Positions 1,478 through 21,815 of a stretch of DNA of 50,920 nucleotides are shown one piece after another (the stretch's first letter is position 1; each line of letters starts with the position of its first letter). A program made the position numbers and the translations under genes. This DNA comes from Silvanigrellaceae bacterium (GTDB lineage: Bacteria > Bdellovibrionota_B > Oligoflexia > Silvanigrellales > Silvanigrellaceae), in contig JBMSQQ010000011.1 in NCBI GenBank assembly GCA_049423385.1, positions 1 through 50,920 of the forward strand. Reading direction: 5' to 3'. Under the pieces are notes generated by a model that ran no database searches, was not told the DNA's origin, and saw only the letters and a list, made by a program, of their open reading frames with translations.

Positions 1478-2364
1478 ACAGCAAGAACGGGCAGGGTGGT
1501 ATTGTTGCCGGTGTGTTGGCGCCGCATCCGCCGCATTTGGTTTATGCAGAAAATCCGCCGCAAAACGAACCCCGCGCAGAGTGTGGTTGGGAAGAATTGC
1601 GTTGGGGATACGAGCGTCTGCGCAACAGTCTGCAGAAGGACGATTTCGATGTGATCATCGTCCACACTCCCCACTGGCGCACTGTGGTGGGGCATCATCT
1701 TCTTGCCGTTCCGCAATTCAAGGGACTTTCTGTTGATCCGGTTTTTCCGCATCTGTTTCGCTACAACTACGATCTCAAGGTCGACGTTGGCCTGGCCGAA
1801 GCCATTGCAGAAGAAGGAAAGGCACTGGGCCTTGAAACAGCGCTCATGCGCAACCCCAAATTCCGTGTTGATTATGGCACCATCATCAGTTGTCACCTGT
1901 CGCGTCCGGGGTGGGACAAACCCATCGTCTCGATTTCCTCGAATGCGGCGTTTGATTACTTCAGCAACGATGTTGGCCAGCAGCAAATGATCGCGCTGGG
2001 ACATGCCACCCGGGCGGCCATCGAGAAATCAGGTCGGCGGGCTCTTTTGTTGGCGTCCTGTTCGCTTTCGCATCGGCATTTCACCGAGGAACCACAAGTT
2101 CCCGAAGACATGACCCACGAGCACATCTACAACCACAACCAATATTTGTGGGACATGCGCATCCTCAAGATGATGCGTGCAGGAGAGTCCAAAAAGGTGA
2201 TTGCCGAAATGCCCGACTTCACCGATCAAGCTGTGTCTGAAACCCGCGCCGGTTGCCTCACGTGGCTGTTGGCAGCAATGAACTTTCCAACCAAGCCTGC
2301 CACTGTGCATGCCTATGGAACGGTGATTGGCACCGGCAATGCCGTTGTTGAGTGGAGGATGTGA
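1474..2364 (+). CDS. amnB: 2-aminophenol 1,6-dioxygenase beta (catalytic) subunit, LigB-type extradiol dioxygenase
   Basis: N-terminus LAPHPPHLVYAENPPQNEPR, HTPHW, SVDPVFPHLFRY, MRNPKFRVDYGT, LSHRHF and YGTVIGTGNAVVEW closely match AmnB/CnbCb as I recall them. ATGA overlap with the upstream gene; AGGAG RBS. Confidence 0.9.
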   Translation: MNSKNGQGGIVAGVLAPHPPHLVYAENPPQNEPRAECGWEELRWGYERLRNSLQKDDFDVIIVHTPHWRTVVGHHLLAVPQFKGLSVDPVFPHLFRYNYDLKVDVGLAEAIAEEGKALGLETALMRNPKFRVDYGTIISCHLSRPGWDKPIVSISSNAAFDYFSNDVGQQQMIALGHATRAAIEKSGRRALLLASCSLSHRHFTEEPQVPEDMTHEHIYNHNQYLWDMRILKMMRAGESKKVIAEMPDFTDQAVSETRAGCLTWLLAAMNFPTKPATVHAYGTVIGTGNAVVEWRM

Positions 2365-2368
2365 AGAC

Positions 2369-3298
2369 ATGGAAACGATCGAGGAAACCTCCTTTGGCTT
2401 TGTTGCTGGATTCATTGTTCCGGGTCTGCCGCAGCCTTTGTTGGCACCCGAAAAATCGCCGGCATGGGCGCGCGTGCGCGATGGCTTTCAAAAGCTGCGC
2501 GAGCGCATTTTGGAACTCAATCCCGATGTATTGGTGATTTATTCGACCCAATGGCCCAGCGTTTTGGGGCATCAGATTCAGGCAGATGCGCGTCCCAATG
2601 GTGTTCACGTTGACCATGAATTTCATGACCTTGGCACCATGGAATACAACTTTCCGGTGCACGTCGAATATGCCGATGCGTACGTTGCAGCGGGCAAGGA
2701 ACGCGGCTTGCACACCCGTCGAGTTGCGTATCGAGGCTTTCCCATCGACACGGGGTCGTTGGTTGCATTGGGGCTCTTGAATCCTGACAACCGCATTCCG
2801 TGCACATTGGTCTCGTGCAACATGTATGCCGATAGGGCTGAAACCATCGTGCTTGGAAAAGCTGCTGCCGATGCGGCACGGGGTAAAAAATTGCGCGCGG
2901 TTGCAATTGCTTCAACAGCTCTTTCGAACCGGATGTGGACGCGCCCCACGGCACCCGCTCAAGACTCTATTTCTTCGCAAAAAGATGACGAATGGAACCG
3001 CAAGCTGCTCGAGCTTTTGGGCCTGGGCAGACTCGAAGACGTGGCTCAACTGGCGCGGCAATTTTCCCGCGAGGCACATGCGGATTCCAAGCTGAAAGCC
3101 ATCTGGTGGTTGTCGGCCGCATTGGGCAGCAGCAATGATTTTTGCGGTCGGGTGCTCGCCTACGAAGGCTTGTTTGGCACTGGCGCTGCAGTTGTTGAAC
3201 TCATGCCTGGCGGTTCAAGCCAGGGTGAGCAGGAATTCGATGAAGACGATGTTGAATTCTATCGTGGTGAGCGATCTGTCTTGACTGCAACCAAGTGA
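2369..3298 (+). CDS. amnA: 2-aminophenol 1,6-dioxygenase alpha (non-catalytic) subunit
   Basis: FIVPGLPQP (metal His absent), PDVLVIYSTQW, GVHVD, YRGFPIDTG, DDEWNRKLLELL, GTGAAVVEL match AmnA/CnbCa; directly follows amnB. Confidence 0.85.
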   Translation: METIEETSFGFVAGFIVPGLPQPLLAPEKSPAWARVRDGFQKLRERILELNPDVLVIYSTQWPSVLGHQIQADARPNGVHVDHEFHDLGTMEYNFPVHVEYADAYVAAGKERGLHTRRVAYRGFPIDTGSLVALGLLNPDNRIPCTLVSCNMYADRAETIVLGKAAADAARGKKLRAVAIASTALSNRMWTRPTAPAQDSISSQKDDEWNRKLLELLGLGRLEDVAQLARQFSREAHADSKLKAIWWLSAALGSSNDFCGRVLAYEGLFGTGAAVVELMPGGSSQGEQEFDEDDVEFYRGERSVLTATK

Positions 3299-3305
3299 AA
3301 AGGCG

Positions 3306-3890
3306 TCATTCGCCTTTTTCTTGGGGAGCGGCCTCTGCGCTGATCAGGTGAAAAGGGTAATTGATCTGCAAAGTGTCTTCGGTTGTCAGAACAGGAAATC
3401 TCCAATTCTTGACCTTGTTCACAAGGCACGCACCAAGCTTCGGGTTTTTATACGTTGAGCGGCCTTCATTGTAGGTTGCGTTGGCCACTTTTCCGCCCGA
3501 TTCGATGTCGAAGGTGATGTACAGTTTTCCTTCGAGTTTTGCGTCTTTTGGCAAGAGGCTTTCAAAGCAGAGCTGGGTGTCTTCGCGATTGCTTGCGATG
3601 ACCTTTTCAATTTCTTCACGGCTCAGGGGCGTTGAGCGACGCTCACCAGGTTTCAATGGGCGCGTGCTTCCATCTGACAATTCGCATTGAAAATCTTCAT
3701 CGCGTTTGAGCTGGACGTAGTTGACGCATTCTTCCGGCGAAATTTGTGCCGGGGTCACAGCTGCTGCGCTGATGGGCTCCGGTTCGCCGTCCTTTGAACC
3801 CATGGAGACGCATGCAACGTATGGTGTCACGCCAATCATCAATACAATTTTTGAAAGAAACAGCTTGTTCAGCATGATGTCACTCGTCAT
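3306..3890 (-). CDS. AgmX/PglI C-terminal (TonB-C-like) domain exported protein
   Basis: LSREEIEKVI...TQLCFE..L...LEGKLYITFDIESGGKV...LGACLVNKVKNWRFP...INYPF pattern; hydrophobic N-terminus ending VAC; ATGA overlap with the lipase stop. Confidence 0.75.
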   Translation of the reverse strand: MTSDIMLNKLFLSKIVLMIGVTPYVACVSMGSKDGEPEPISAAAVTPAQISPEECVNYVQLKRDEDFQCELSDGSTRPLKPGERRSTPLSREEIEKVIASNREDTQLCFESLLPKDAKLEGKLYITFDIESGGKVANATYNEGRSTYKNPKLGACLVNKVKNWRFPVLTTEDTLQINYPFHLISAEAAPQEKGE

Positions 3891-5131
3891 TCGATGGAAC
3901 CGGTGGCTGGTAAAAAGTGAGGCGCAACCGGAGTCTTGAGCTGACAATGACTTGCAAAGGGGATATGGTCAAAGAGCATCCGCCAATTTGCAAACACCGC
4001 AGCGAGGATTGAGCGGCCCTGGCTTCTGCCCAGAACGGTGTTCCAGTACTCGACATCCTCATTTTCCGCATATTCGCGCGGTTCAGACAGGTTTCCGCGG
4101 GCGTCTTGCGTCAGAAGTCGGCCCACGTGTGTATAGTTGAGAATTTCAAAAACACCTTGAACGGACTCGCGCGAATCCTCGGGGAAAAGCATGCTGAAAT
4201 TATTCGCGGCAACGCGTGGTGGAGGAAGTCTTGGGACTACATCCTCATTGTTCACGAAGCGATAGATTCGTTTTGGAAAAAGCTTCGAAACGAACTTTGA
4301 ATAAACCTCGTCTCCAACCCGCGGCGACGAATAGATGTAAATCGAGTCGACAGGAAAGCCCAGTGTCGAAAGTCGAGCGGCGCTGATGACGGCCTGCGCA
4401 CCTCCCAGGCTATGTCCGGTGAGAATGATGGGAAGGTTCGAGTTTGAATGTTCGCGCACCAGCGACAAGACTTTCGCCCAACTCTTTTCAAGAACATTTA
4501 GAAAACCCGTGTGAACCCGACCCGGAATTCCCGGGAAGAATTCGGGCTTGCTGGCAAAGGTCACGTCCGTCATGTAGTCGATGAGATCAGAGGTTCCCGC
4601 AAAACTCACGATGACGTATTTGCTGTTCGACCCTACGAAAGCCTGAAAGCTCGTCGAATTTTCCTGGATGAAATCAATTTTTGTGAGTCCCATCTGACGC
4701 AGTTGATCGGTGGCTTCTATCTGGCGATAAGCCTGGATGCTGAGCCACGACAGCCAATACGCATTGCCTTGATCAAAATTGTCCAGGTCTGTTGATATTT
4801 GCAATCCGGGACCTTTGGGGTTTGTGCAACGTCCCGGGTCCCATTTCGGTCGCCAGCGGCGGGCCCGGGTGGTTTCGTCGCCAACGATGGCTTTGTTGCG
4901 CAAAGTTTCATCAAGGTAACGCATGCCCTGCGCATATTTCGAAGGACGGAGAATGTTGATTTTTGAATCGTTGTCAAATTCATCAGAGAGCTGTTGGCCA
5001 CAACTCGTCAGGCCCACGGCACATACGACCGCTGTTTTTTTGAAATGACAGGCTCGAAAAACACGCCTGACGAGAGATAGATGCAACCGAAATCCCTCCG
5101 TGGATTGTTTGCAGCACCTGTATTGTTTCAA
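3887..5131 (-). CDS. class 3 lipase (alpha/beta hydrolase), probable lipoprotein
   Basis: VSFAGT, VHTGF, LTGHSLGGA nucleophile elbow, SPRVGD, NEDVVPRLPP, YTHVG, DH; lipobox LTSC. Exact start uncertain. Confidence 0.9.
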   Translation of the reverse strand: MKQYRCCKQSTEGFRLHLSLVRRVFRACHFKKTAVVCAVGLTSCGQQLSDEFDNDSKINILRPSKYAQGMRYLDETLRNKAIVGDETTRARRWRPKWDPGRCTNPKGPGLQISTDLDNFDQGNAYWLSWLSIQAYRQIEATDQLRQMGLTKIDFIQENSTSFQAFVGSNSKYVIVSFAGTSDLIDYMTDVTFASKPEFFPGIPGRVHTGFLNVLEKSWAKVLSLVREHSNSNLPIILTGHSLGGAQAVISAARLSTLGFPVDSIYIYSSPRVGDEVYSKFVSKLFPKRIYRFVNNEDVVPRLPPPRVAANNFSMLFPEDSRESVQGVFEILNYTHVGRLLTQDARGNLSEPREYAENEDVEYWNTVLGRSQGRSILAAVFANWRMLFDHIPFASHCQLKTPVAPHFLPATGSIE

Positions 5132-5200
5132 AAAAGTAACAATTTCAATCTATCAACCCGGCCAACTGAGCGTCAACCGGGCACTGGCGAGTTTGACGAT

Positions 5201-6241
5201 TTATTTGCTGCCACTCTTTAGAGCAGTCAGTTCCTTTTCCACGCTTGCGTATTGCGAGTCGAATTCCGACAGCTTGGTCCGTGCTTCAAGAACCTCTTTC
5301 ATGATTTGCACGGTTTGGCTTTGATATTGGTTGTATTGTTCAAGCTTGATCTTTGCTGCGGGACAATCGATTTGCATGATCTGCTGTGGGGCAGCCTTTC
5401 CGAGAATTTCGTTGATAGCTCCATTCAGTGCAGTACCAACTCCTGCCATCAATCCATTGACAAGAGGCGTCACCACCACGGCACTGACGATCTTGATGAG
5501 GCCCATGATCTGCGCCTGACGTGCACGATCCGCAGCTTCCTGCTCAACACAGGCTGCGTAGGAGGTGTTCGCTTCCTCGGCAGCACGGCGCATGCTGTTG
5601 AAGTTTCCGTAAAGGCGCCCCTCAGCGGAACTGAGCCCCGAGAGCACTTCCACTTCAAAGTCGGTTCTTGTGTTTTTGTAGTCGATGACGGGTGTGATCT
5701 CGAGTGCAAAACTGCAGCCAGCTTGTTTCGTTGTCGACGACGCAGCAGAAACACACGGATTCACAATGTAGTAAAACTTTCCTTCGGTGGCCGCATAGTC
5801 TGTCACGGTCTGGGCAGTTGTCGCGCTGGCAATCGCCCTGCAGGCAGAGACTTCTCCGCGCATGCGTTTGAATGCTTCTGCCGCTGCAGCCCTGTATTCG
5901 GGCGAAGATTTTGGAAGGTCGGACAATTTTTGCAGACCATTGCCATACACCATCGAAAAACTCGCCCTGCAGCGCCAGACCTCGGCGGAGTCTGCTCCAC
6001 CGTATGAAATGCTCACCACGGGAACATCGCCCTTGAGACCATCAAATCGTTTTGTTGCAGAACTCACCGTCGCAGAGGCACCGTTCGGGTCCATCAGCGA
6101 TTGTGCCGTCAGACTGCTTCCTTTGGGCTTTGTGGTTGGATTGTCGACGCACGCAACCTGGCTTGCAAGAAGAAATGCAAACGCGAAGCCACCGAGGCAC
6201 CGGCCGTTTGCGGATTTGGTTTGTTTGGTGTTGTGACTCAT
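5201..6241 (-). CDS. putative lipoprotein, paralog C: Cys-bridged beta domain plus coiled-coil with hydrophobic hairpin
   Basis: 346 aa ORF, signal ending QVAC, ATGA overlap with upstream gene, shares motifs with the two upstream genes. Confidence 0.75.
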   Translation of the reverse strand: MSHNTKQTKSANGRCLGGFAFAFLLASQVACVDNPTTKPKGSSLTAQSLMDPNGASATVSSATKRFDGLKGDVPVVSISYGGADSAEVWRCRASFSMVYGNGLQKLSDLPKSSPEYRAAAAEAFKRMRGEVSACRAIASATTAQTVTDYAATEGKFYYIVNPCVSAASSTTKQAGCSFALEITPVIDYKNTRTDFEVEVLSGLSSAEGRLYGNFNSMRRAAEEANTSYAACVEQEAADRARQAQIMGLIKIVSAVVVTPLVNGLMAGVGTALNGAINEILGKAAPQQIMQIDCPAAKIKLEQYNQYQSQTVQIMKEVLEARTKLSEFDSQYASVEKELTALKSGSK

Positions 6242-7299
6242 GGCGCTTCTCCAAACAATTTCATGCTCTGTTGGTAGCTTTCCGATTCAAGTTCGATCTG
6301 TTGCTTGTCTATCTCAATGTCTTTGGCCAGCCGGTCTGCCGGAGGACAATAATCCGGTGGCAGGAAATCTGCCGATTGGGCCGAGAGATCCTTGAATATT
6401 CCAGCCACGTCGAGGCCGCCGATAATCGATTGTGTCGCTTTGTCTGCAATCATTTTCGACCCCAAACCAACACCAATTCCCAACAACTGTCCGATTGCAG
6501 CCCTGCGTTTTTGAGAGACCCGGTTTGCGCCGCGCTCTGCTTCGCAACGGCCGATTTCCGTATCCAGTTGTTTCGCTTTGTAGACAATGTTTCGGCCCAG
6601 GCTGTCGATCTTGTCGCGTTGGGCCAGCAGCTGTGATTTTCGTTCTGCAGAGAGGGCTTGTTCCTTGTTCACGTATCCACGCAGGTCTCCCGATTTGGAA
6701 ACTTGCCGGGAACAGGGACTGACGGTTGCGCTGGTGCTGTCGAGGGGGAGACGCGACGCCTGCACGCATGCACGACTGACGTAAATCCAGTTTCCGTCAC
6801 CGGCAAAATAGTCGACGAACTTGTCGATGGACACACTTGTTGCGATCGTGACACAGCCAAAAGTGCTGGAAATATTTTTCCAGTAGTCGGTGTCTTTGTA
6901 CTTCTGATCCGCCACCTGAGTATTGGCTGCACCAATCTCGATGGTGCCGAGGTCGCCCAGTTTCGCATCGGCCCGGCAGCGGATGATTTGCACGTAATCG
7001 GCTTTTTCCGGAAATGAAAAACTCAGAATCGGATACTTGTACCGGCTGACTTCGAAATAGGAAGCCCCGAAAAAATTCAATCGCATCGTTGCGCCATCAA
7101 GTTCTTCTGCAGAAATCCGTCCCTTCACCTGTTGGGCCAGAAGATTTGAACTTTTCTTGGCAACCGATCTCGTATCCGACGTTTTTGAATTGTTGCAGGC
7201 GCTCGCGGACACACACGCCAACAGGGTCAAAACAGCAGTGCCTATTGTTTTAAGATTCTCTTGTTTTGGTGGAGTCATGAATTGAAAAAATCCAATCAT
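6238..7299 (-). CDS. putative lipoprotein, paralog B: Cys-bridged beta domain plus coiled-coil with hydrophobic hairpin
   Basis: 353 aa ORF, signal ending ASAC, ATGA overlaps on both sides. Confidence 0.75.
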   Translation of the reverse strand: MIGFFQFMTPPKQENLKTIGTAVLTLLACVSASACNNSKTSDTRSVAKKSSNLLAQQVKGRISAEELDGATMRLNFFGASYFEVSRYKYPILSFSFPEKADYVQIIRCRADAKLGDLGTIEIGAANTQVADQKYKDTDYWKNISSTFGCVTIATSVSIDKFVDYFAGDGNWIYVSRACVQASRLPLDSTSATVSPCSRQVSKSGDLRGYVNKEQALSAERKSQLLAQRDKIDSLGRNIVYKAKQLDTEIGRCEAERGANRVSQKRRAAIGQLLGIGVGLGSKMIADKATQSIIGGLDVAGIFKDLSAQSADFLPPDYCPPADRLAKDIEIDKQQIELESESYQQSMKLFGEAP

Positions 7300-8528
7300 G
7301 GATTTGCTCCTCCCATCTTGGCCTTGAGTCTTGCTGAACGAGCCTGCAATTCCGCCGCAAGAATCTTGGCAGCAGCTGTGGATGTTTGGATCGCCGTTTC
7401 GAGCTTCTGGTTCAGCGACTCGATGCAGATTCCTTCGAGTGCCACCTCACGTTCTGCATTTGCCAGATTGAAGATCGCTCCGGCAATTTGCGGAAGCACT
7501 GCACCCACATCATTCAGTGTCAGCTTTCCCGCTTTGGTGGCCGTCTGCTGCGAGACACATTGCGCAGCGGCGCCATTGCCCTTGCTTTGCAGAGCTCCGG
7601 CGATTTTGTCGACGATGGTTGTCAGGCTTGTCGAGCTCAGTGCGCTGGGGCCAATCATTTGCGCACCGGGAGTGGCTGTGGCTGAAAGGTCCAAAAGGAG
7701 CTTGGCGGCACCTGCAGCGGGATCAGTTCCATTGTTTGCTCCTGTTGCAGGTGTTTGGCCCGACGCAGCAGGATCTGTAGGAGTCTTGCCTGCAGCCGGG
7801 TCTGTTTGGGTTTTGTCTCCAGCTGGAGCTGCTGCGTTACAACCGGGTGTTCCTTTTGCGATGGCATTACTGATGACACCCAAAGCACTCTGACCCAATT
7901 TTCCAAGTGCCTCCGCGAGGCCCTTGTCAGCTGCAAGTGCGGCTTTCTGCTGCTCGGTTGCAGGTTTGCACTTGTTGGCTCGTTCAAGTTTGTACTTCAG
8001 GATCGCTTCCAGGTGCGTCTGGAGTTCCTTGGTGGCGATCTCGATTGCTTGTTGCTCTTCCTGCAATGCGGCCTTTTCGCGATCGATCACTGCCCATTGG
8101 TTGTATGATGATTGAAACCATTCTCCACAATTCGAACTGCCTGTGGCACGGGACCTGTCAACGCATGCCCGCAACTTGACGACAACCTTGGCTCCACTTG
8201 GAGCATTTGCCAGTGTGGATTCGGTTGTGAAAATGTTTTTGGCTTCACTGCAGCTGGATTCCGATTCTACGCAGGTCGCGACTTCCACGTATTCTGCGAA
8301 TCCCGAGTAGCTGAAATTCACGAGAGGCTGAACAGCTCCCCCGAATTTCGGATTTGAGTACTGAACAACGTTGATGTCGCTGATCAGCAGTGTCTTCGCA
8401 TCGACCATCGGAAGCGATGGCACAGAATCCAGACTCAGCGTTTTGTTGATCTGGGGACCATCCGGATTGGTGCAGGAAATTGCCAGCAATGCGCAAGTCA
8501 CCAGGGAAATGCAGCCAACTGTTTTCAT
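7296..8528 (-). CDS. putative lipoprotein, paralog A: beta domain plus coiled-coil hairpin with low-complexity insertion
   Basis: Start at MKTVGCISL (ATG 8528 overlapping vWA stop, RBS GGAGG); signal ending AISC. Confidence 0.75.
   Translation of the reverse strand: MKTVGCISLVTCALLAISCTNPDGPQINKTLSLDSVPSLPMVDAKTLLISDINVVQYSNPKFGGAVQPLVNFSYSGFAEYVEVATCVESESSCSEAKNIFTTESTLANAPSGAKVVVKLRACVDRSRATGSSNCGEWFQSSYNQWAVIDREKAALQEEQQAIEIATKELQTHLEAILKYKLERANKCKPATEQQKAALAADKGLAEALGKLGQSALGVISNAIAKGTPGCNAAAPAGDKTQTDPAAGKTPTDPAASGQTPATGANNGTDPAAGAAKLLLDLSATATPGAQMIGPSALSSTSLTTIVDKIAGALQSKGNGAAAQCVSQQTATKAGKLTLNDVGAVLPQIAGAIFNLANAEREVALEGICIESLNQKLETAIQTSTAAAKILAAELQARSARLKAKMGGANP
7711..7825 (-). repeat. 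imperfect TDPAA peptide repeats (3 copies) inside paralog A
   Basis: Protein ...KTQTDPAAGKTPTDPAASGQTPATGANNGTDPAAG...; DNA copies at about 7711, 7761 and 7789. Confidence 0.7.
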
Positions 8529-9673
8529 TTTGCAACTCCTCCCTGCGCGATCGAGATGCTGACAGACTTTGATTTCGCACCCGTCTGGGAGCACTTGCGC
8601 GTTACACTGAGCTTCAATGTGCCATTGGGTACGGATGGTGGTAGAGACGCCTCAAAGACGCCGGTCGTGTCGGATGTTGAGACATCCTTTTTGAAAATCA
8701 ATTGTCCACTCTGGTCTGTCGCTTCGAATGAAGTCAAAAGACAAGATTCCGAACTGGACGCATTGACCGATGCACGGTTGCTGAGAGCAGGTATCCAACC
8801 GACCAAATCGGCCGGAACAAGAACGCGCACTGGTTTGATGCCTGCCGTCGAAGTCAAAAGGTCGAGTTGCTCGATGGCTGTCGGATCAAACTTGGACAAT
8901 CCCGTTGCAATCTGGTTGTTCGCCGCATAATTGACAATTAGTTGTCCACCGCTCGATGCCAATTTGCTGGAAAATTCCGAGACAATCTTTGCGGTTGGTC
9001 CAACGTCGATTCCTGTGCTGCCAATCCCTGTTGAGCCGCTGATCAGCATCAAAAGTTTGTTGGCATTGCTGCCTGCCTGGAGATGCTTGATGCCTTCTTC
9101 AATGCCAGGGAAAACTGCCTTTGCAGCATCATTTGTGATCCAATCGGTCGAGTTCGGATCGATGGTCTTGAGACCATTGGGTGTCCAGTCGGTGGAATCA
9201 CCGCCAATGTCCGAGATGAGCTTCGCCGTTTCTCCCTGTGCAACCGATGCAACGATTTTGTTGCGAAATGAAACAGCGGAGAGGGAGCCAATACGTCCGT
9301 CCGAGTTCAGTTTCGTCAGGACCTGAATCAGCTGTGGCTTCAATGACGAGGCCAACTTCAACATGTTTTCAGATACGTCCACCACAACCGCGACATCATA
9401 TTTGAAAGCCGATTCCGCCCCTGCACCCTGCAGGCTGTTCGGGCAGTTTATCGGAATGCCAATGGCCTGTGGCCTGTTGCCTTGGTTGAATTCGTTGCCA
9501 TCAACTTTTTCAACGATGCAGTCGAGATTGACCCGACCAGGTGTACCCAGAAAGCCCGCAGGTCTTATCTTCACATCGGCACTCACATCACGCGTCGACG
9601 TGAACTTGCTTGGTGCGCAGGCAGATGCCACGGATGCCAGAACGAGTCCAAGGTTTGTCATTTTCAAGCGCAT
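8525..9673 (-). CDS. vWA-like domain lipoprotein
   Basis: Signal ending ASAC; DVAVVVDVSENM (MIDAS-like strand), LSAVSF, KLLMLISG; RBS GGAGG. Confidence 0.7.
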   Translation of the reverse strand: MRLKMTNLGLVLASVASACAPSKFTSTRDVSADVKIRPAGFLGTPGRVNLDCIVEKVDGNEFNQGNRPQAIGIPINCPNSLQGAGAESAFKYDVAVVVDVSENMLKLASSLKPQLIQVLTKLNSDGRIGSLSAVSFRNKIVASVAQGETAKLISDIGGDSTDWTPNGLKTIDPNSTDWITNDAAKAVFPGIEEGIKHLQAGSNANKLLMLISGSTGIGSTGIDVGPTAKIVSEFSSKLASSGGQLIVNYAANNQIATGLSKFDPTAIEQLDLLTSTAGIKPVRVLVPADLVGWIPALSNRASVNASSSESCLLTSFEATDQSGQLIFKKDVSTSDTTGVFEASLPPSVPNGTLKLSVTRKCSQTGAKSKSVSISIAQGGVAK

Positions 9674-9707
9674 GAAACCTCCTCCCTCCGCAGATACCCT
9701 GCGCCCT

Positions 9708-11090
9708 TTATTCCGCAGGGCAGTCGTTGCGTGTCATCAGCTGGATGAACGCGGGATTGTTCTGAATCTGCTCGGCACCGTCGTTGGAAGGCCAAACCAG
9801 TGAGTTTGAAGCGAAGGTGAAGGAGAATCCTGCTTTCTCGTAAACAACTTGATCGTTTGCAAGGATGGTGATCTTGGAGAAGCTTCGCAGGTCGAGTTCG
9901 TAACGGTGAAAGCCCGACCACGCACCGATCCCAAAAAAGCCATCAAGGCGGAACGGGTCATTCTGATAGGCGACGCCGCCTTTCTTGATGCGCAAACCAC
10001 GCAGCTCCTGAATTTCACGATCCGAAAAGGCGTTTGTGGTGAAGCCGCCACCTGGTCTGAAGATCGCACCTTGCGACTCGTCAGGCACGGTATGGAACAT
10101 GTTTTGACCAAAAGTGAAGGTGTACTCCTTCGAATTTCCGGCGTTTTGCAATGCTGACGAAGAATCTCCACGGTTCGAATTGGCAAGTGCTGCGCCTTCA
10201 ACCTTGACCTGGAGTTTCTTGATTTTCGAATATCCCCAGCATCCCAGGTTTTCCGCGCCTGTGAGTTGCTTGATCAACTGATCGTTTCGGTTGGATTCCC
10301 GCGCGAACTGTTGCTCGAGGTCTGGCGGTTGAGGGTCACTTGAGGCAACAGGCTTTGTTGCGAGCGCGTCATCCATGAGTTTTTTCAACTCGTCGCGAGG
10401 CACGGCGCACTTTGCATCCTGCTGGAATCCAAGAATCTTGGTCAGCGCAATCTGGATTCCTCCGTTGGTGTCGCTCAAATCGTTGCGGTCAAACAAGGCT
10501 TGTCCGTTGAGGAAAAGCACAAAAGTCGAGACGTCTGATTTCTTGTAGTTGGTGCTGTTCGAACAAGAGTCGGGGACCACCTTCAGGAACATGTCGCTCA
10601 GTTCGATCACGCGTGGTGATTTGACCAACGAAGTCGATTTCGGTGGAAGAATATCGCAAGGCGATTTTGTTCGGGGACCCCATGTGAGTTTTTGCTTCGT
10701 TCCGGTGCCCACGGCTTGTGTTTGCCACATGCCGTTTTTGGTGGTCAGGATCGCCTTTGTTCCGCTCGGCACGACAATGTTCAATTCAAAATTGGATTCA
10801 ACGGTGGCGTTGGGGTCAACACCCGAAACGCACCCCAAGACTTTCTGGTCGTCGTCGGGTGTCAGGCTCGCAGTGGCAACCGGACATTCAACTCTTTGTT
10901 TTTGAACCCGCAAACACAGCGCGTCGTTTTGGGTTTTGAGTTCCATCAGTTTGGAAAATGAAGCCTTCGATTGGCTGTCGAGAGCCTGGGCACCCATCGG
11001 CATGTTCTTCAAATTTGCCGGGAGTCCTGGTGGCTCTGGCGCACAGGCACTGGCAGAAATCAACGCTGTGAAGATAAGTAACGTGCGCAT
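9708..11090 (-). CDS. lipoprotein with two tandem coiled-coil + beta-domain repeats
   Basis: 460 aa; signal MRTLLIFTALISASAC; RBS GGAG; internal duplication visible by eye. Confidence 0.75.
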   Translation of the reverse strand: MRTLLIFTALISASACAPEPPGLPANLKNMPMGAQALDSQSKASFSKLMELKTQNDALCLRVQKQRVECPVATASLTPDDDQKVLGCVSGVDPNATVESNFELNIVVPSGTKAILTTKNGMWQTQAVGTGTKQKLTWGPRTKSPCDILPPKSTSLVKSPRVIELSDMFLKVVPDSCSNSTNYKKSDVSTFVLFLNGQALFDRNDLSDTNGGIQIALTKILGFQQDAKCAVPRDELKKLMDDALATKPVASSDPQPPDLEQQFARESNRNDQLIKQLTGAENLGCWGYSKIKKLQVKVEGAALANSNRGDSSSALQNAGNSKEYTFTFGQNMFHTVPDESQGAIFRPGGGFTTNAFSDREIQELRGLRIKKGGVAYQNDPFRLDGFFGIGAWSGFHRYELDLRSFSKITILANDQVVYEKAGFSFTFASNSLVWPSNDGAEQIQNNPAFIQLMTRNDCPAE

Positions 11091-11318: not shown

Positions 11319-13667
11319 ATGGAGAAAATTAGAACTTTTTCGCGGGGAGCGGGACTGTCCGCTTTTGCCGTGGCGGGACTGGGGCTTTTGTTGGGACATG
11401 CCCTTGCCGATGACCGGCCTGTTCCAAGGCCCAATCCAATTCCAAATCTGCCGGCGCGTCCGCCAATTCTCATCGACCCTTCAAAACTTCCGGTCATTCG
11501 CCACTCGTACATAATCAAAACGTTGCCCATCCAGGTCATCAAGCCAATTCAAACGCGATTGCCGACCATTCCGTTGCCGCAACTTCGGCCCGAGACACAA
11601 GTCACAATCGGCCTCTACAACGGCAAGGGTGCAGTTGACGGATCTGTCAACAAATCACTGCAGCAGATTCAAAATGAAATGAACACATGGGCCAGCGACC
11701 AACGCAGCCAGTATCAAGTGTTTGCCGGTCGTTCACCGATTTTTGCAAACATGGCTCTGAAAGAGTTGACGCAGTTCAACCAAAGCAAAAATCGCAACAT
11801 GCGTGTTGGTCAAATTCCGATGAATCTTGTTCATCTGGAAGCCCTCAAGCGCCAAAGCGATGCGTTCAAGAATCCCGGACAGGTCGAAAACGAACCTGAA
11901 TTCAAGGATCGCACTGTGGCCTATTCGGGAGGCTACGCCCGCTCGCTTGGAAATGAATATTTTGGTGTCGATGCGAACGCTGGATACGGTGTGAACATCT
12001 CCAAGGATTTTCAAAAGGCCGATGCCAATGCCACGGTCAATGGAACCATCCTGCAGAGCCAGGTCAATGTGTTTGATGCGCAAGCCCACAACGAAACAGG
12101 CCAGGCCACCTACTGCTACATATCCGTATTCGGTCAAAAACTGTGGGAAATGACGAGTCCAAGTTTTGCGGATGATGTTTATTATGATCGTTCTGAAGGT
12201 GCCCGCATGAACTTCTGGCTGGGGCCTGTGCCAATGTCGGTGGGAGGTTCCGTCACTGGCCGCCTGGGAACGCAATACAATGTACAAGCACTCTATGGCG
12301 AAAAATTGCTCAATGGAACCGTGCGTCCCTATCTGGACACCTATGGAAATGTTGATGCTGCGATTGATGCTTACATCGCCTCTGCAGGAGTTTTTGGTTC
12401 GCTCAAGTTTTTGGGTTTGAGTCTGCCGACAACAGCCTATCTCAAGTACGATCTGCGCCCGGACGCTCCCTTGCTCACAGCAAATCTCGACGTGAACACC
12501 AACGTCGACGCCTTGGGTGGTCGAGTAGGGTTGTTTGCTGAAATCGATTACTGGTTCGACACGGAACGTTGGGAAAAAACGCTGTTTTCGTGGTCAGGCT
12601 TCCAGGAGAGTGCCAGCGTTTTCAAAGAGCGCGAGTCGCTTCCGCTCAAGGATTATATTGGATGGAAGTACAAGCAGCTCAATGGTGCGTCCGGATTCCT
12701 CGGTCAGCCTGTCGGTGGCGAATCACAAACCCCAAGCAAGCCTGGATTGTACCGCCATTTTCAGGGTGGCTCGATTTATTGGTCTGAAGCAACCGGGGCC
12801 CATGAAGTTCACGGACTCATTCGCAACAAGTGGGCTTCGATGGGTTGGGAAAATGGAAAGCTTGGGTTCCCAATGTCCGACGAACTCACAGCTTCCGATG
12901 GTCAAGGAAAGTACAACCACTTTCAAGGCGGAACCCTTTGGTACCATCCTGCGACAGGAAATGCGTTCCTCGTGAAAGGTGCCATCAATGAGAAATGGAA
13001 ACAGTACCGGCGTGGTTTGGGAATGCTCGGCTATCCGACCATCGACGAAACACAAACTCCCGACGGTCGTGGGTACTACAACCACTTCCAAAATGGTTCG
13101 ATCTACTGGACTCCGCAAACAGGTGCTGCAGAAGTTCATGGCCTGATCCGCCAGAAATGGGCAGACAATGCTTGGGAGCGCGGAGTGCTTGGATATCCGC
13201 TCACCGACGAGGGGCAAACTCCAGATGGAATGGGACGCTTCAACCACTTTGAGGGCGGCTCCGTTTACTATCATCCCGAGTTCGGAACAAACATTGTCCG
13301 CGGAACGATTCGTGATCGTTGGGAAGCGCTCAATTGGGAACGCGGCTGCCTCGGTTATCCAAAAGACGAACAACGCATTACCCAAACGGAAACCGTGTCT
13401 ATGGACATTCCTGTTCTGGGTCGTGTGAGTGGTCTGAGAAAAACGATCACGCAGGTGTTCGAGGGTGGTTCTGTTTCCTACAAGGAAGATTGTTTCGGAA
13501 CTCAATGCAAAATGTCATCGGGACCACTGCATCAATGCACCCTGATTCCGATCAAGGTTCCACCAATTGTCAGGATTCCGTTGCCAACACGGCCATTGCC
13601 AATGCCTTTTCCACGCCCAACGCCAGGACCAAACTCGCTGGTGGTAGATGAAGAAGTCGGGGAGTGA
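11319..13667 (+). CDS. secreted protein: Pro-rich ends, large beta-sheet domain, five LGFP repeats
   Basis: RBS GGAGG; signal peptide ending ALA; repeats LGQP/LGFP/LGYP/LGYP/LGYP with HFQGGSIYW-type segments. Confidence 0.85.
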   Translation: MEKIRTFSRGAGLSAFAVAGLGLLLGHALADDRPVPRPNPIPNLPARPPILIDPSKLPVIRHSYIIKTLPIQVIKPIQTRLPTIPLPQLRPETQVTIGLYNGKGAVDGSVNKSLQQIQNEMNTWASDQRSQYQVFAGRSPIFANMALKELTQFNQSKNRNMRVGQIPMNLVHLEALKRQSDAFKNPGQVENEPEFKDRTVAYSGGYARSLGNEYFGVDANAGYGVNISKDFQKADANATVNGTILQSQVNVFDAQAHNETGQATYCYISVFGQKLWEMTSPSFADDVYYDRSEGARMNFWLGPVPMSVGGSVTGRLGTQYNVQALYGEKLLNGTVRPYLDTYGNVDAAIDAYIASAGVFGSLKFLGLSLPTTAYLKYDLRPDAPLLTANLDVNTNVDALGGRVGLFAEIDYWFDTERWEKTLFSWSGFQESASVFKERESLPLKDYIGWKYKQLNGASGFLGQPVGGESQTPSKPGLYRHFQGGSIYWSEATGAHEVHGLIRNKWASMGWENGKLGFPMSDELTASDGQGKYNHFQGGTLWYHPATGNAFLVKGAINEKWKQYRRGLGMLGYPTIDETQTPDGRGYYNHFQNGSIYWTPQTGAAEVHGLIRQKWADNAWERGVLGYPLTDEGQTPDGMGRFNHFEGGSVYYHPEFGTNIVRGTIRDRWEALNWERGCLGYPKDEQRITQTETVSMDIPVLGRVSGLRKTITQVFEGGSVSYKEDCFGTQCKMSSGPLHQCTLIPIKVPPIVRIPLPTRPLPMPFPRPTPGPNSLVVDEEVGE
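12655..13380 (+). repeat. five tandem LGFP repeats (~54 aa each)
   Basis: I..KW...GWE.G.LGYP..DE..T.DG.G.YNHF.GG.IYW...TGA..V.G periodicity. Confidence 0.9.
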
Positions 13668-15667
13668 TGAGCAACGTGAAGCTGCGAAACGGTCGAAATA
13701 CTCTGGTTGGATTGGTGGCGGTTTTGGTGATTGGCCTGGGTGTGTACTTCACCACCCGGCAAACAACATCCGCACCCTCTCCACAGGCTGACAGCCCGGC
13801 GGGTGCTTCATCCGCAGTCGATAAAGCGACATTTGAACAGGCACTCGTCAGGTATTCACTCAATACCGATGAAGTGAGAACATTCGGGTTTTTGCAGGAT
13901 ATGTCTGTTGAGATGAATCCTGCGCAGGGGCAATCGACCGTTTCGCGCATTCACTTGCGTGGGCAATTTGATGAGCAGCTCGTTTCTGTTTCCGGAAACA
14001 GGCTGACGTATCGCTACAATTTTCATGATGTTCAATTCGAGTCCACCGATGCCGAAGGGCGAGCCGCACTTCCTCCCGACGAAGTGAACAACATTGTTCA
14101 GTCTGTGGTTGGCACCACCTTGTTGCTCAAGACGGATGTGTTGCATTCAAGCATCAGCTGGAGCGTGACTCGCCAAACGAATCTTGAAACTCTCAACCTC
14201 CTGCGCAGTGTCGTGCTTTCGGGCTCGGTGTTTTTGCCGGCCGCGAAGGACCTCAGCGAATGGACCGGCACCGAGGAAGATTCAACCGGCATTTTCACGC
14301 TGAATCACAAATTGATTTCGCTGGGGAATGGCAAAGCCCAAATTGAAAAGGAACCACGCATGGTGAGGGTTCCAGAGGATTTCGGCCTGGCCGGTCATTC
14401 CACGCAGCAGTCGGTGGTTGTTTTACCGTCCTCTTCCACTAAAATTGAATTCGACGCAACGGCGGGGCATCTGCTCAAGGCTGATCAACGCTGGAGCATG
14501 CGGGCGCAGGCCGCCGGATTGTTGGCAACCACCAATCTGCGCACTCAAGTCGATTTTCAGTCAAAACGCAAAGCGACAGATGAAGACCGTAAATTCCTGC
14601 AGTCCGATATCGCATCGACAGATTCGGGCAATGGATTCATCAGCGAGTTCGAGCTTCAGGCAGCCCATTCCACTTCGATAAAGCGCAAAGTGGCAGCGCA
14701 AAAACTTGCTGGCGAAAATTGGGCGAGCCTTAGAAGCCTTTTGATGTCGCCGGATTTTCACAAGGACGGCGCCGCTCGGGCAAAGTTTTTCGAACAACTT
14801 TCGGCACTGTTGTATTTGCAGCCTGAACTTTGCACCACAGTTGCGGATGAAATCGCCAGGCTCGACAGGCAGGACCCCGATTACAAGAGCAAATTGTCTC
14901 TCTTGGCGGGGGTTTTTTCGAGTCAGGAAACACCCGAAGCAGAGGCCGCCATGGTGGCGTTGGCAGAGCGGATGAAGGAAGATTCGTCGGCATTGATGCA
15001 AGTCATTCCTGCAATGGCAGCGCATCGGAATCCATCCGAACGCACGCGCGATGCCCTCATGCAGAGCTATACCCAGGCGGTGGATGAAGGAGTCAAATCA
15101 ACTGCAACCTTGGCATTGGGAACATTTGCCTCGCGTGCCCGGAACTCAAGGCCCGATCTGACACGTGAAACCGTGGAGCGGTTGAAACAGGATTTCGACA
15201 GTTCGTCTGCAATCAACAAGAAGGTCACACTTTCGGGTGCATTGGGAAATGTCGGTGCCAATGAAGCCCTTGAAAGCGTGAAATCGCTGTTCGCTGCGAG
15301 TCAGGATGCGTCCTTGAAGCGTTCGGCAATCTACGACCTGCGCTTTGTGAACGACCCTCAGGTCGATGTGTTTTTGCAGCAGGTCGTGACCGACTCTGCA
15401 ACCGATCCGGAACTTGTCGTTCAGGGGGTGAGGGTTATGAGAATGCGTCCGCCGCTCAAGATGCATTTGCAGACCATGACCACACTGTTTCGCACCAAAG
15501 GCGTCCGCGCGACGCTTCGGAGCGAAGCGCTTTACACGATTTCATATTTGTCGCCGGTGTCTCCGGAAGAAGTGCAAAAACTTTTGGAAGAAGCTGCCAA
15601 GGACGCCAATCCGCAGATTGCAAAACAGGCGGAACAGCTGTTGGCGCGTCAAACCCAGCCGTTGTAA
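13664..15667 (+). CDS. membrane-anchored beta-barrel + HEAT-repeat protein, vitellogenin/MTP N-terminal (LPD_N)-like architecture
   Basis: Single N-terminal TM; ~250 aa beta-strand-rich region, then helical repeats with ATLALGTFA, LSGALGNVG, LKRSAIYDLR, LRSEALY; start overlaps the upstream stop. Confidence 0.7.
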   Translation: MMSNVKLRNGRNTLVGLVAVLVIGLGVYFTTRQTTSAPSPQADSPAGASSAVDKATFEQALVRYSLNTDEVRTFGFLQDMSVEMNPAQGQSTVSRIHLRGQFDEQLVSVSGNRLTYRYNFHDVQFESTDAEGRAALPPDEVNNIVQSVVGTTLLLKTDVLHSSISWSVTRQTNLETLNLLRSVVLSGSVFLPAAKDLSEWTGTEEDSTGIFTLNHKLISLGNGKAQIEKEPRMVRVPEDFGLAGHSTQQSVVVLPSSSTKIEFDATAGHLLKADQRWSMRAQAAGLLATTNLRTQVDFQSKRKATDEDRKFLQSDIASTDSGNGFISEFELQAAHSTSIKRKVAAQKLAGENWASLRSLLMSPDFHKDGAARAKFFEQLSALLYLQPELCTTVADEIARLDRQDPDYKSKLSLLAGVFSSQETPEAEAAMVALAERMKEDSSALMQVIPAMAAHRNPSERTRDALMQSYTQAVDEGVKSTATLALGTFASRARNSRPDLTRETVERLKQDFDSSSAINKKVTLSGALGNVGANEALESVKSLFAASQDASLKRSAIYDLRFVNDPQVDVFLQQVVTDSATDPELVVQGVRVMRMRPPLKMHLQTMTTLFRTKGVRATLRSEALYTISYLSPVSPEEVQKLLEEAAKDANPQIAKQAEQLLARQTQPL

Positions 15668-15704: not shown

Positions 15705-15734
15705 CCGCACATTTCATTTGTGCGGTTTTCTTTT
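15705..15734 (+). terminator. rho-independent terminator
   Basis: CCGCACA-tttcatt-TGTGCGG followed by TTTTCTTTT, about 40 bp after the stop at 15667. Confidence 0.7.
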
Positions 15735-15735
15735 G

Positions 15736-20210: not shown

Positions 20211-21147
20211 TCTGTCTGGAAAATCATTTTTGAGCTTGAAACACATGTCACCCATGCAGCTGCGTGAACTGCTTGCTCTTGCAAAAAGCCTCAAGGCTGA
20301 AAAGAGGAATGGCCAATTTCCCAAGCGGCTGGCAAACAAGAATGTCGCACTTCTGTTTGAAAAGCTGAGCACGCGCACGCGCTGTTCATTCTCGGTTGCG
20401 TGTCATGACGAGGGTGCCGCGGTTGATTTTCTTGGCAGCTCGGACATTCATTTCGGCAAGAAGGAATCGCTGGAGGACACCGCCCGTGTGTTGGGTCGAT
20501 TCTACGACGGGCTGGTTTATCGCGGCTATGCGCAGAAGACTGCAGAAACACTTGCCGAGCTCTCGGGTGTCCCGGTCTTCAACGCGCTCACAGATGAGGA
20601 ACACCCCACCCAGGCGTTGGCCGATCTCATGACTCTTGAGGAGCGATTTTCGCATCTGGCAGGCCTGAAGGTTGTTTATGTCGGTGATGCTGCCAACAAT
20701 GTGGCCCATTCACTCATGCATGCCTGTGCGTTGGTTGGCGCCCACTTTGTTTGCTCGGCACCAAAGGAATATTTTCCTGCGCCTTCGGAATTGGAATTCA
20801 CCGCACGCCTTTGCAATGACTCTGGAGCCAGCGTGACGCTCGAGGAAAATCCAGTGAAAGCGGTTGCTGGTGCGGATGCCATTTACACGGATGTCTGGAT
20901 ATCGATGGGATTTGAAAATGCACCTGGAGCACAGGAGAGGGTCAGCCGATTGCGCCCTTATCAGGTCAATGAAGCGCTCATGAAGGCCACGGGCAACAAT
21001 CAATCCGTGTTTCTGCATTGTCTGCCAGCAAACAAGGGCCTCGAAATCACTTCCGAGGTCTTCGAGGGAACTTCAAGTTTGGTTTTTGAACAGGCAGAAA
21101 ATCGCCTTCACACCATCAAGGCAGTTCTGGTTTCAGGGCTGACTTAA
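20203..21147 (+). CDS. argF: ornithine carbamoyltransferase
   Basis: FEKLSTRTR, KESLEDTARVLGR, HPTQ, YTDVWISMG, HCLP, QAENRLHTIKA. Confidence 0.95.
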   Translation: MNNLSGKSFLSLKHMSPMQLRELLALAKSLKAEKRNGQFPKRLANKNVALLFEKLSTRTRCSFSVACHDEGAAVDFLGSSDIHFGKKESLEDTARVLGRFYDGLVYRGYAQKTAETLAELSGVPVFNALTDEEHPTQALADLMTLEERFSHLAGLKVVYVGDAANNVAHSLMHACALVGAHFVCSAPKEYFPAPSELEFTARLCNDSGASVTLEENPVKAVAGADAIYTDVWISMGFENAPGAQERVSRLRPYQVNEALMKATGNNQSVFLHCLPANKGLEITSEVFEGTSSLVFEQAENRLHTIKAVLVSGLT

Positions 21148-21815
21148 AAGAATTCTTTGAAAATCTTCTCATCGCCGTCGTTGAGCGGAAGCTCTCCGCA
21201 GTGCATCGCAATCGATTTTTCAAAGTGTTGATGCTCGGCAGGAGCCTTTTCAAAGCCAAACCGTTCATAAAAACGGATGCCGATTTCGGAGTGGAGCACG
21301 AATCCCATGTTTGCCTGCTCGTTTTGAAGCAATGCAATGACGCTGCGCATCAGCAGGGTTGCGTGACCCGACTTGCGTTTGTCGGGTGCGGTTGCCAGCC
21401 AGGCAAGGCCTGTCAGCTGATTTCGAAATCGGAGCGTGTTGAGTGTCGACAAAGGTTCGCCGTCGAGGGACTCCAGCAGGTAGCGTTGACCACGAAGGTG
21501 ATTTTTGTTGTCGTTGTATGACGCAACAAACTCTGCCATCGAGCGGCCTTGTCCCCAGGCATCATAGCCAAATGGAAGAATCAGCTTGGACTCTTCAAAA
21601 GACAGCTTGCGCAACCGCGCGATGGAAACAAATCTTTTGCTGCCTCTGGGTCCACCGTTGTCGTGGAACATTCCGCTCGGGCGAATCCAGCGCTGGCCAC
21701 GTGGGTTGTCATACAAGGCCAGGTACGATTCAAAAGTTTCAGTTGATTCCGAATGCAGGCACTGGCCCAACTGAAGATAGTGCATCCCTTTGTGGTGCTG
21801 GTACAGTGTCCACAT
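21144..21815 (-). CDS. DUF1653-like domain fused to GNAT acetyltransferase
   Basis: N-terminal YQHHKG.HY...HSE.....Y.ALY....WIRP..MF; C-terminal ATAPDKRKSGHAT (motif A) and FYERFGF. Confidence 0.75.
   Translation of the reverse strand: MWTLYQHHKGMHYLQLGQCLHSESTETFESYLALYDNPRGQRWIRPSGMFHDNGGPRGSKRFVSIARLRKLSFEESKLILPFGYDAWGQGRSMAEFVASYNDNKNHLRGQRYLLESLDGEPLSTLNTLRFRNQLTGLAWLATAPDKRKSGHATLLMRSVIALLQNEQANMGFVLHSEIGIRFYERFGFEKAPAEHQHFEKSIAMHCGELPLNDGDEKIFKEFF

Follow-up and report, generated by a model that had tools for sequence, protein, structure and literature searches.

A conserved bacterial gene pair as a candidate split form of the module found in large lipid transfer proteins

We analysed a 50,920-nucleotide stretch of DNA from a freshwater Silvanigrellaceae bacterium of the Oligoflexia (GenBank assembly GCA_049423385.1, contig JBMSQQ010000011.1; hereafter the window), in which two plus-strand genes overlap in the sequence TGATG; we call them gene 1 (11319-13667) and gene 2 (13667-15667). 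We consider it fairly probable that these translationally coupled genes encode a split, two-piece bacterial version of the lipid-binding module of the large lipid transfer proteins (LLTPs), with a putative lipid pocket. Judged by its sequence relatives and its predicted structure, gene 2 is truly homologous to the N-terminal module of LLTPs, which is made of a barrel and a two-layer helical clamp. Complex prediction suggests that the products of the two genes are probably physically associated. The fold of the partner encoded by gene 1, a periplasmic location, the pocket and the binding or transfer of lipid are parts of this picture that we infer. The novelty lies in the two-gene architecture and in the conserved partner; bacterial matches to the LLTP module are not new as such, and the Pfam cut-off would already label most relatives of gene 2 as Vitellogenin_N. 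An earlier, sequence-only reading of the window had proposed that the two genes encode the two halves of an LLTP-like complex, with LGFP repeats as a targeting module and a neighbouring operon that contains a lipase. Both open reading frames (ORFs) lie at the coordinates given in that reading, and all the motifs and strings quoted in it were found where expected.

Homology of gene 2 to the LLTP N-terminal module

The ORF of gene 2 was listed from a GTG at 13664, which gives 667 amino acids. The ATG at 13667, which gives 666 amino acids, is the likelier start, and the public copy of the protein has 666 amino acids; residue numbers of gene 2 are nevertheless counted from the GTG throughout. An AlphaFold2 model based on a 92-row family alignment had a predicted local distance difference test score (pLDDT) of 89.1 and a predicted template modelling score (pTM) of 0.82. 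It was composed of a helix at residues 10-26, a disordered linker, strands at residues 70-303 (plus two inner helices) and, at residues 306-664, a set of 19 helices. The N-terminal helix corresponds to a hydrophobic segment at residues 13-29 in the translation (13700-13750) and, being preceded by K6, R8 and R11, would be an uncleaved signal anchor. The beta-barrel (residues 62-303; 13847-14572) encloses a helix and matches the N-sheet of LLTPs, and a right-handed two-layer alpha-helical superhelix (residues 306-664; 14579-15655) comes right after it; both are features of the LPD_N module. The superhelix carries the ALG and ALGN.G motifs, in the form of ATLALGTFA (residues 481-489) and LSGALGNVG (residues 523-531), and L483, G486, G528 and N529 were invariant or nearly so over the 92 relatives.

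The proposed likeness of gene 2 to LPD_N, in the barrel as well as in the helices, was borne out by structure comparison, by the family profile and by the Pfam matches of its relatives. When the model was searched with Foldseek, ranks 1-11 were all LLTPs (E values of 6e-15 to 1e-7), the best for each protein being MTP (6i7s_H, 6e-15), apoB (9bd1, 2e-12), lipovitellin (1lsh_A, 1e-11) and bee vitellogenin (9ens_A, 5e-10). The first protein other than an LLTP, at rank 12, was an engineered repeat protein (E value 2e-6). The gene 2 barrel (residues 62-303) aligned with the LLTP barrels by fold. The family profile, built from 92 sequences, matched lipovitellin with an E value of 7.9e-20 (profile positions 143-543 to chain positions 90-507), MTP with 6.7e-12 and apoB-100 with 9e-9; designed HEAT proteins outscored the LLTPs in this search, on the last helices only.

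Among 60 distant relatives of gene 2, 54 matched PF01347 (Vitellogenin_N) at E ≤ 0.01 and 49 reached its 24-bit cut-off. Four distant relatives (P0030, P0032, P0040 and P0070) spanned PF01347 from positions ~48-76 to 572-582, that is, the barrel together with the helices. In the close set, which comprised the gene 2 protein and its 14 close relatives (n = 15), four proteins matched PF01347 and three reached the cut-off, and the matches of the close relatives covered profile positions 319-582 in the helical part. An exhaustive search for relatives of gene 2 yielded 703 cluster representatives (50% identity) at E ≤ 1e-3, 167 of which had E ≤ 1e-10. The best 150 of the 703 were nearly all 580-715 amino acids long and were aligned across most of their length.

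The end of gene 2 was compared with the domain boundaries of MTP, which is divided into a barrel (residues 21-297), a helical domain (residues 298-603) and a C-terminal A/C-sheet domain (residues 604-884) in the excerpted text of PMC6717300. The same excerpt describes the helical domain as 'a clamp' that grips the C- and A-sheets. Gene 2 terminates at residue 667, three residues past its last helix and, by analogy with MTP, exactly where the lipid-binding sheets would start. C- and A-sheets in the same polypeptide as the helical domain are absent from gene 2, and the best 150 of the 703 relatives were all ≤ 714 amino acids long. When fused or longer forms were sought with the gene 2 family profile, only generic HEAT-repeat proteins were found; as the search was word-limited, this speaks weakly against fused forms in bacteria.

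Conservation of the pair and the partner family

Gene 1 encodes a putatively exported protein of 782 amino acids (11319-13667), which was delimited from its ORF, translation and start context. Its ATG at 11319 has GGGAGGAAAGA directly upstream, and its stop codon, TGA, lies at 13665-13667. The protein consists of a signal-peptide-like start, a proline-rich linker, about 350 residues without a database match, LGFP repeats and a proline-rich tail. The signal-peptide-like N-terminus (residues 1-30, with ...LLLGHALA before DD; 11319-11408) was recognised by eye in the translation. A conserved, beta-rich core at residues ~175-440 (11841-12638) was defined by alignment, by blastp against 20 loci and by genome searches, and this segment is common to all the distant partner proteins. 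The strand strings quoted in the sequence-only reading were located in gene 1, with MNFWLGPVPMSVGGSVTGRLG at residues 297-317, VRPYLDTYGNVDAAID at residues 335-350 and LGGRVGLFAEID at residues 399-410. We found 11 close homologues of gene 1, which were 66-93% identical to it over the N-terminal 470 amino acids and were located on the same contigs as the homologues of gene 2.

The occurrence of the two families was determined in a phylum sample of 131 species genomes, with a threshold of E ≤ 1e-10 for the gene 2 family. The gene 2 family was present in 65 of these genomes. Relatives of gene 1 were detected in 46 with its first 450 amino acids as the query and in 59 with a profile of 25 partner sequences. 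All 59 genomes with the partner family also held the gene 2 family, with six genomes holding only the gene 2 family, none only the partner and 66 neither; these counts are inflated by kinship among the genomes. In g8, a related genus of the same bacterial family for which complete genomes exist, the pair was present in seven of 13 species. When gene 1 was used as a single sequence, 54 of its 68 matches were ≤ 3 kb from a gene 2-like match and on the same strand, the partner being the first gene in 42 of the adjacent pairs and the second in 12. Several of the 14 non-adjacent matches fell on short contigs. Among the 150 gene 2-like matches listed, at least 54 had a partner. In each of 20 retrieved loci, which were chosen because matches to both families were listed there, the two ORFs overlapped or were < 90 nucleotides apart.

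To compare the divergence of the two proteins, protein distances were calculated for 21 pairs. The two sets of distances were strongly correlated (Mantel r = 0.934), a value matched by none of 2000 permutations, and the nearest neighbour was identical for both proteins in 17 of the 21 pairs. Paralogous pairs of one genome clustered with their counterparts in other genomes, and have therefore been duplicated as units. In every pair the partner was more strongly conserved than the barrel-helix protein beside it (with distances of, for instance, 0.08 versus 0.28 and 0.28 versus 0.47). Likewise, the lipid-binding domain of MTP is described in the excerpt of PMC6717300 as its best-conserved part. 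Thus the gene pair, whose conservation in other bacteria the sequence-only reading had proposed to check, is conserved, adjacent and co-diverging far outside the genus.

Additional copies of the pair were observed. In the genome of the window (3.47 Mb, 90.6% complete), contig C146 contains, at 1-1869, a second, divergently arranged pair, and so do most genomes of the genus. In this pair the partner-like ORF has about 408 amino acids and the gene 2-like ORF about 410-455. Matches of the latter were confined to the profile's helical part (positions ~374-639), and on sequence it may be a variant that lacks the barrel. In one family of the phylum (f18), up to nine gene 2-like and seven partner-like matches were found per genome, compared with one or two in the genus of gene 1.

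The partner proteins at the 20 loci were 281-659 amino acids long and had very different extra segments. N- and C-terminal additions in the partner family varied by clade; some were helical segments or long inserts, and LGFP repeats appeared only in the genus of gene 1. In gene 1, four LGFP repeats (PF08310; 12684-13343) were matched in four stretches with an E value of 4e-83 and 274 bits versus a cut-off of 22, above the Pfam threshold; a degenerate fifth unit, recognised by eye, reaches ~13538, and AlphaFold2 gave a pLDDT of 70-87 across this part. LGFP repeats occur in cell-wall-associated proteins of Corynebacteriales, and the Pfam description assigns them an anchoring role. Gene 1 shares the repeats with those proteins, but here they stand behind an LLTP-partner core in Oligoflexia of the Gram-negative type. 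The Pfam search detected LGFP repeats in none of the 20 partners outside the genus, and, judging from these matches, the repeats are an addition specific to the copies in the genus of gene 1. The suggestion that they form a targeting module is plausible, but would apply to these copies only.

In the ESM Atlas, a 388-amino-acid paralogue of the partner had feature neighbours in clusters of hypothetical proteins (scores 0.92-0.94) whose commonest phyla were Bacteroidota and Myxococcota. Because of these clusters, the partner family may reach well beyond Oligoflexia. The second structural neighbour of the same paralogue was a 'Lipoprotein' cluster that is commonest in Pseudomonadota, with a template modelling (TM) score of 0.51.

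Predicted complex and its interpretation

Complex prediction was performed with residues 62-667 of gene 2 (92-row alignment) and residues 85-450 of gene 1 (25-row alignment). The interface score ipSAE (interaction prediction score from aligned errors) was 0.72, 0.90 and 0.73 in the three runs (median 0.73), and the best of three controls scored 0.00. The runs shared at least 54% of their contacts, which numbered 256-303, and the pLDDT of the partner was at least 53. In a calibration, 116 of 157 solved complexes and two of 215 mismatched pairs passed the same mark; this calibration holds only roughly for gene 1 and gene 2, because alignments of our own making were used.

In the predicted complex, the gene 2 interface was formed by ten alternate helices, starting at residues ~338, 369, 408, 445, 476, 518, 548, 583, 615 and 649. 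These are one helix from each hairpin and make up the inner layer of the arc. L483, G528 and N529 of gene 2 were predicted to contact G272, K274 and W276 of gene 1. On the gene 1 side, the interface extended over residues 175-363 and often involved alternate residues of a strand (235/237/239/241, 253/255/257/259 and 307/309/311/313). The interface residues of gene 1 were mostly polar (23% hydrophobic), and the opposite faces were rich in Ala and Val. This geometry is the same as that of MTP, where the C-sheet 'lines' the helical domain (PMC6717300, in excerpt).

These results are consistent with the following arrangement. The N-terminal transmembrane helix would hold the barrel and clamp of gene 2 at the inner membrane, on its periplasmic side, and an N-in signal anchor, as suggested by the sequence, would make the whole complex periplasmic. 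Gene 1 would be exported, and its core of ~265 amino acids would dock on gene 2 by turning the polar sides of its strands to the inner layer of helices, in the position that the C- and A-sheets occupy in MTP and lipovitellin. The strands' apolar sides would stay free and could form a pocket for lipid or another hydrophobic ligand. The LGFP repeats and proline-rich tails, added in this genus, would probably anchor the complex at the cell wall.

A number of observations weigh against a split LLTP module of this kind. Conservation was not enriched at the predicted interface (0.32 versus 0.34 elsewhere in gene 1, and 0.24 versus 0.26 in gene 2). The best complex run had no called contacts with the barrel, whereas half of the A-sheet meets the barrel in MTP. 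The pass in complex prediction may reflect what the model learned from LLTP structures already solved, and on that account it shows likeness and not binding. On the side of gene 2, its own sequence did not match PF01347 in Pfam at E ≤ 1, nor did it match any NCBIfam entry. The gene 2 model superposed poorly on LLTPs as a whole (TM scores of 0.34-0.39, root-mean-square deviation of 12-14 Å), and the arrangement of its domains therefore differs; its identity to LLTPs is ~10-13%. Gene 2 also lacks the barrel disulfide, which is conserved in MTP (C174-C194), lipovitellin and apoB according to the excerpt of PMC6717300; its single Cys (...PELCTT...) is in the helical domain.

On the side of gene 1, the core had no sequence match in Pfam or the Protein Data Bank (PDB). 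A Pfam search with all 25 members of the partner family returned LGFP repeats and otherwise only matches at chance level, and the profile of the family against PDB sequences returned nothing under an E value of 3. A scan of the 131 genomes with PF09172 (Vit_open_b-sht) at E ≤ 1 gave 21 weak matches, none of which was on a partner ORF and none of which reached the cut-off. A look-up of gene 1 residues 90-450 in the ESM Atlas gave neither a model nor a usable match. The low-confidence Atlas model of the 388-amino-acid paralogue (pLDDT 0.61) had a TM score of 0.38 with the vitellogenin open sheet, and TonB-type and outer-membrane barrels were tied at 0.32-0.35. The sequence-only reading had described about 250 residues of continuous amphipathic strands in gene 1. 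Polar and apolar residues do alternate in the sequence (for example, at residues 233-270), but AlphaFold2 with gene 1 alone and its 11 close homologues gave a pLDDT < 50 over residues 1-443, which includes the strand region at residues 117-443, and ~20-40 in the core. The idea that the genes encode two halves of one LLTP-like complex gained from the predicted docking on the concave helical face, which passed its controls, but found no counterpart to Vit_open_b-sht in the sequence of the gene 1 core.

We considered three other explanations. The pair could be LLTP-like without being a lipid carrier, and could serve as a periplasmic or surface scaffold that binds something else, such as proteins, polymers of the cell wall or material from the surface of prey, with paralogous pairs and their add-ons providing recognition or adhesion. 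The up to nine gene 2-like matches per genome, the great differences among the extra segments of partners and the restriction of LGFP repeats to the copies of this genus would fit such a role, and binding to microbes and receptors is described for animal vitellogenins as well. However, what is conserved in the partner is its core of amphipathic sheets and not the add-ons, and the strands of this core direct an Ala/Val-rich face away from the predicted interface, as would be expected of a pocket lining. In addition, all characterised relatives of the module bind lipid, as far as the excerpts of PMC6717300 and PMC12214520 go, and we regard a scaffold without a lipid-carrying function as rather unlikely. 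A still smaller probability is given to an OmpA-like layout, in which the core of gene 1 would be a beta-barrel in the outer membrane and its LGFP tail would bind the wall from the periplasm; gene 2 would then be its inner-membrane-anchored partner in a trans-envelope link. Gene 1 has a signal peptide and long, Gly-rich amphipathic strands followed by a putative wall-binding domain, two minimal paralogues end in ...VIY, and the Atlas model of the paralogue resembles TonB-type or outer-membrane barrels about as closely as it does the vitellogenin sheet. Nevertheless, none of the 25 members of the partner family matched any Pfam family of outer-membrane proteins at E ≤ 1, and the remaining paralogues that we inspected had no aromatic C-terminal residue. 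The outward face of the gene 1 strands is rich in Ala and Val rather than in bulky or aromatic residues, and in the predicted complex whole strand faces are laid on the helical layer, which would be impossible for the lipid-facing wall of a barrel.

It is hardly credible that gene 2 is a generic repeat protein of the HEAT/PBS-lyase type, with its likeness to LLTPs and its proximity to gene 1 having no functional meaning. The sole Pfam match of gene 2 itself was HEAT_2, with 24.2 bits under a cut-off of 27.7, designed alphaRep and Integrator HEAT proteins had the top scores for residues 350-667, and the search among longer proteins returned HEAT-repeat proteins only. These HEAT matches were confined to the helical half, whereas the barrel aligns with LLTP barrels and several relatives match PF01347 from position ~48-76 onward. 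The two genes are also adjacent, nested in their occurrence and co-diverging. What the sequence-only reading had named as outcomes that would speak against it, namely matches to generic HEAT repeats alone or two proteins that do not associate or co-occur, is not what was observed: an LLTP barrel is aligned and the pair co-occurs.

A split LLTP module would most closely resemble the large subunit of MTP (PDB 6i7s and 8eoj), the smallest LLTP, whose first two domains have the same order and size as those of gene 2 and whose A/C-sheet domain, with 281 amino acids, comes close in size to the gene 1 core. Unlike MTP, the bacterial module is split over two genes of variable order, is predicted to be anchored by a transmembrane helix and has neither a PDI subunit nor the barrel disulfide. 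Gene 2 is only ~11-13% identical to MTP, with a global TM score of 0.34, and no similarity of its partner to LLTP sheets could be detected in sequence. In lamprey lipovitellin (PDB 1lsh), the C- and A-sheets belong to one chain and form a large funnel cavity, whereas gene 2 stops after the helices and its partner does not match PF09172. The N-terminal beta-alpha1 region of apoB-100 (PDB 9bd1 and 9bd8) is also comparable with gene 2, but apoB runs on into thousands of residues of amphipathic belt, and there is no such belt here.

In the excerpted parts of PMC12214520 and PMC13540394, LLTPs (MTP, vitellogenin, apoB and apolipophorins) are described as animal lipid carriers whose emergence is tied to multicellularity. 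Our search of full-text literature, the coverage of which excluded subscription journals and supplements, found no paper on bacterial LLTP homologues or on a split form. The present results point to a large and diverse bacterial family of barrel-plus-clamp proteins, each copy paired with a second protein that is rich in sheets. Should the two together form a lipid pocket, phylogeny and reconstitution of the halves would allow direct tests of how LLTPs originated, and the pair would offer a natural 'split' system in which to study the cooperation of clamp and sheets. It would also be a new candidate route for lipid handling in the envelope of Oligoflexia and, by the hints from the Atlas, of other phyla. 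One conceivable, though doubtful, history is that a barrel-plus-clamp protein and a separate sheet protein came first, as a periplasmic shuttle that carried lipid between the membranes of bacteria, and that MTP, vitellogenin and apoB arose from a fused pair after its transfer into early eukaryotes, in which case LLTPs would not be an animal invention.

Neighbouring genes and minor features

Upstream of the pair, a divergent operon of six genes occupies 3887-11090 on the minus strand. All of its products have lipoprotein-like signal peptides ending in Cys; five of the genes could be assigned to no family in Pfam, whereas the last (3887-5131, minus strand) encodes a class-3 lipase (Lipase_3) and is six genes from the pair. 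The genes at 5201-6241 and 6238-7299 are weak paralogues of each other (20% identity, E value 8e-6). The sequence-only reading had connected the pair with this lipase operon, and we rejected the functional tie: at 20 loci that contain the pair outside the genus, no relative of any of the six genes was found. In the genus itself, the first operon gene (9708-11090) is the sole one to recur beside gene 1, at five of nine loci. Because the operon genes are absent from the pair loci outside the genus, the lipase was not counted as part of the system.

Directly 3′ of gene 2, a terminator-like hairpin with a T-run (15705-15735, with the hairpin at 15705-15725; plus strand) would close a two-gene operon; it comes from a consensus scan, in which the number of sites was not above that in shuffled sequences. 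The pair is followed downstream by carA, carB and a carbamoyltransferase gene.

Other genes in the window have features of their own. An Asparaginase_II gene (260-1477) is followed on the plus strand by two overlapping tandem paralogues of LigB-type extradiol dioxygenases (1393-2364 and 2327-3298; 28% identity). On the minus strand, a DUF1653-GNAT acetyltransferase fusion (21144-21815) and a 648-amino-acid Lnb_N/DUF7843/DUF7840 protein (26328-28274) are encoded, each with no apparent relation to the pair.

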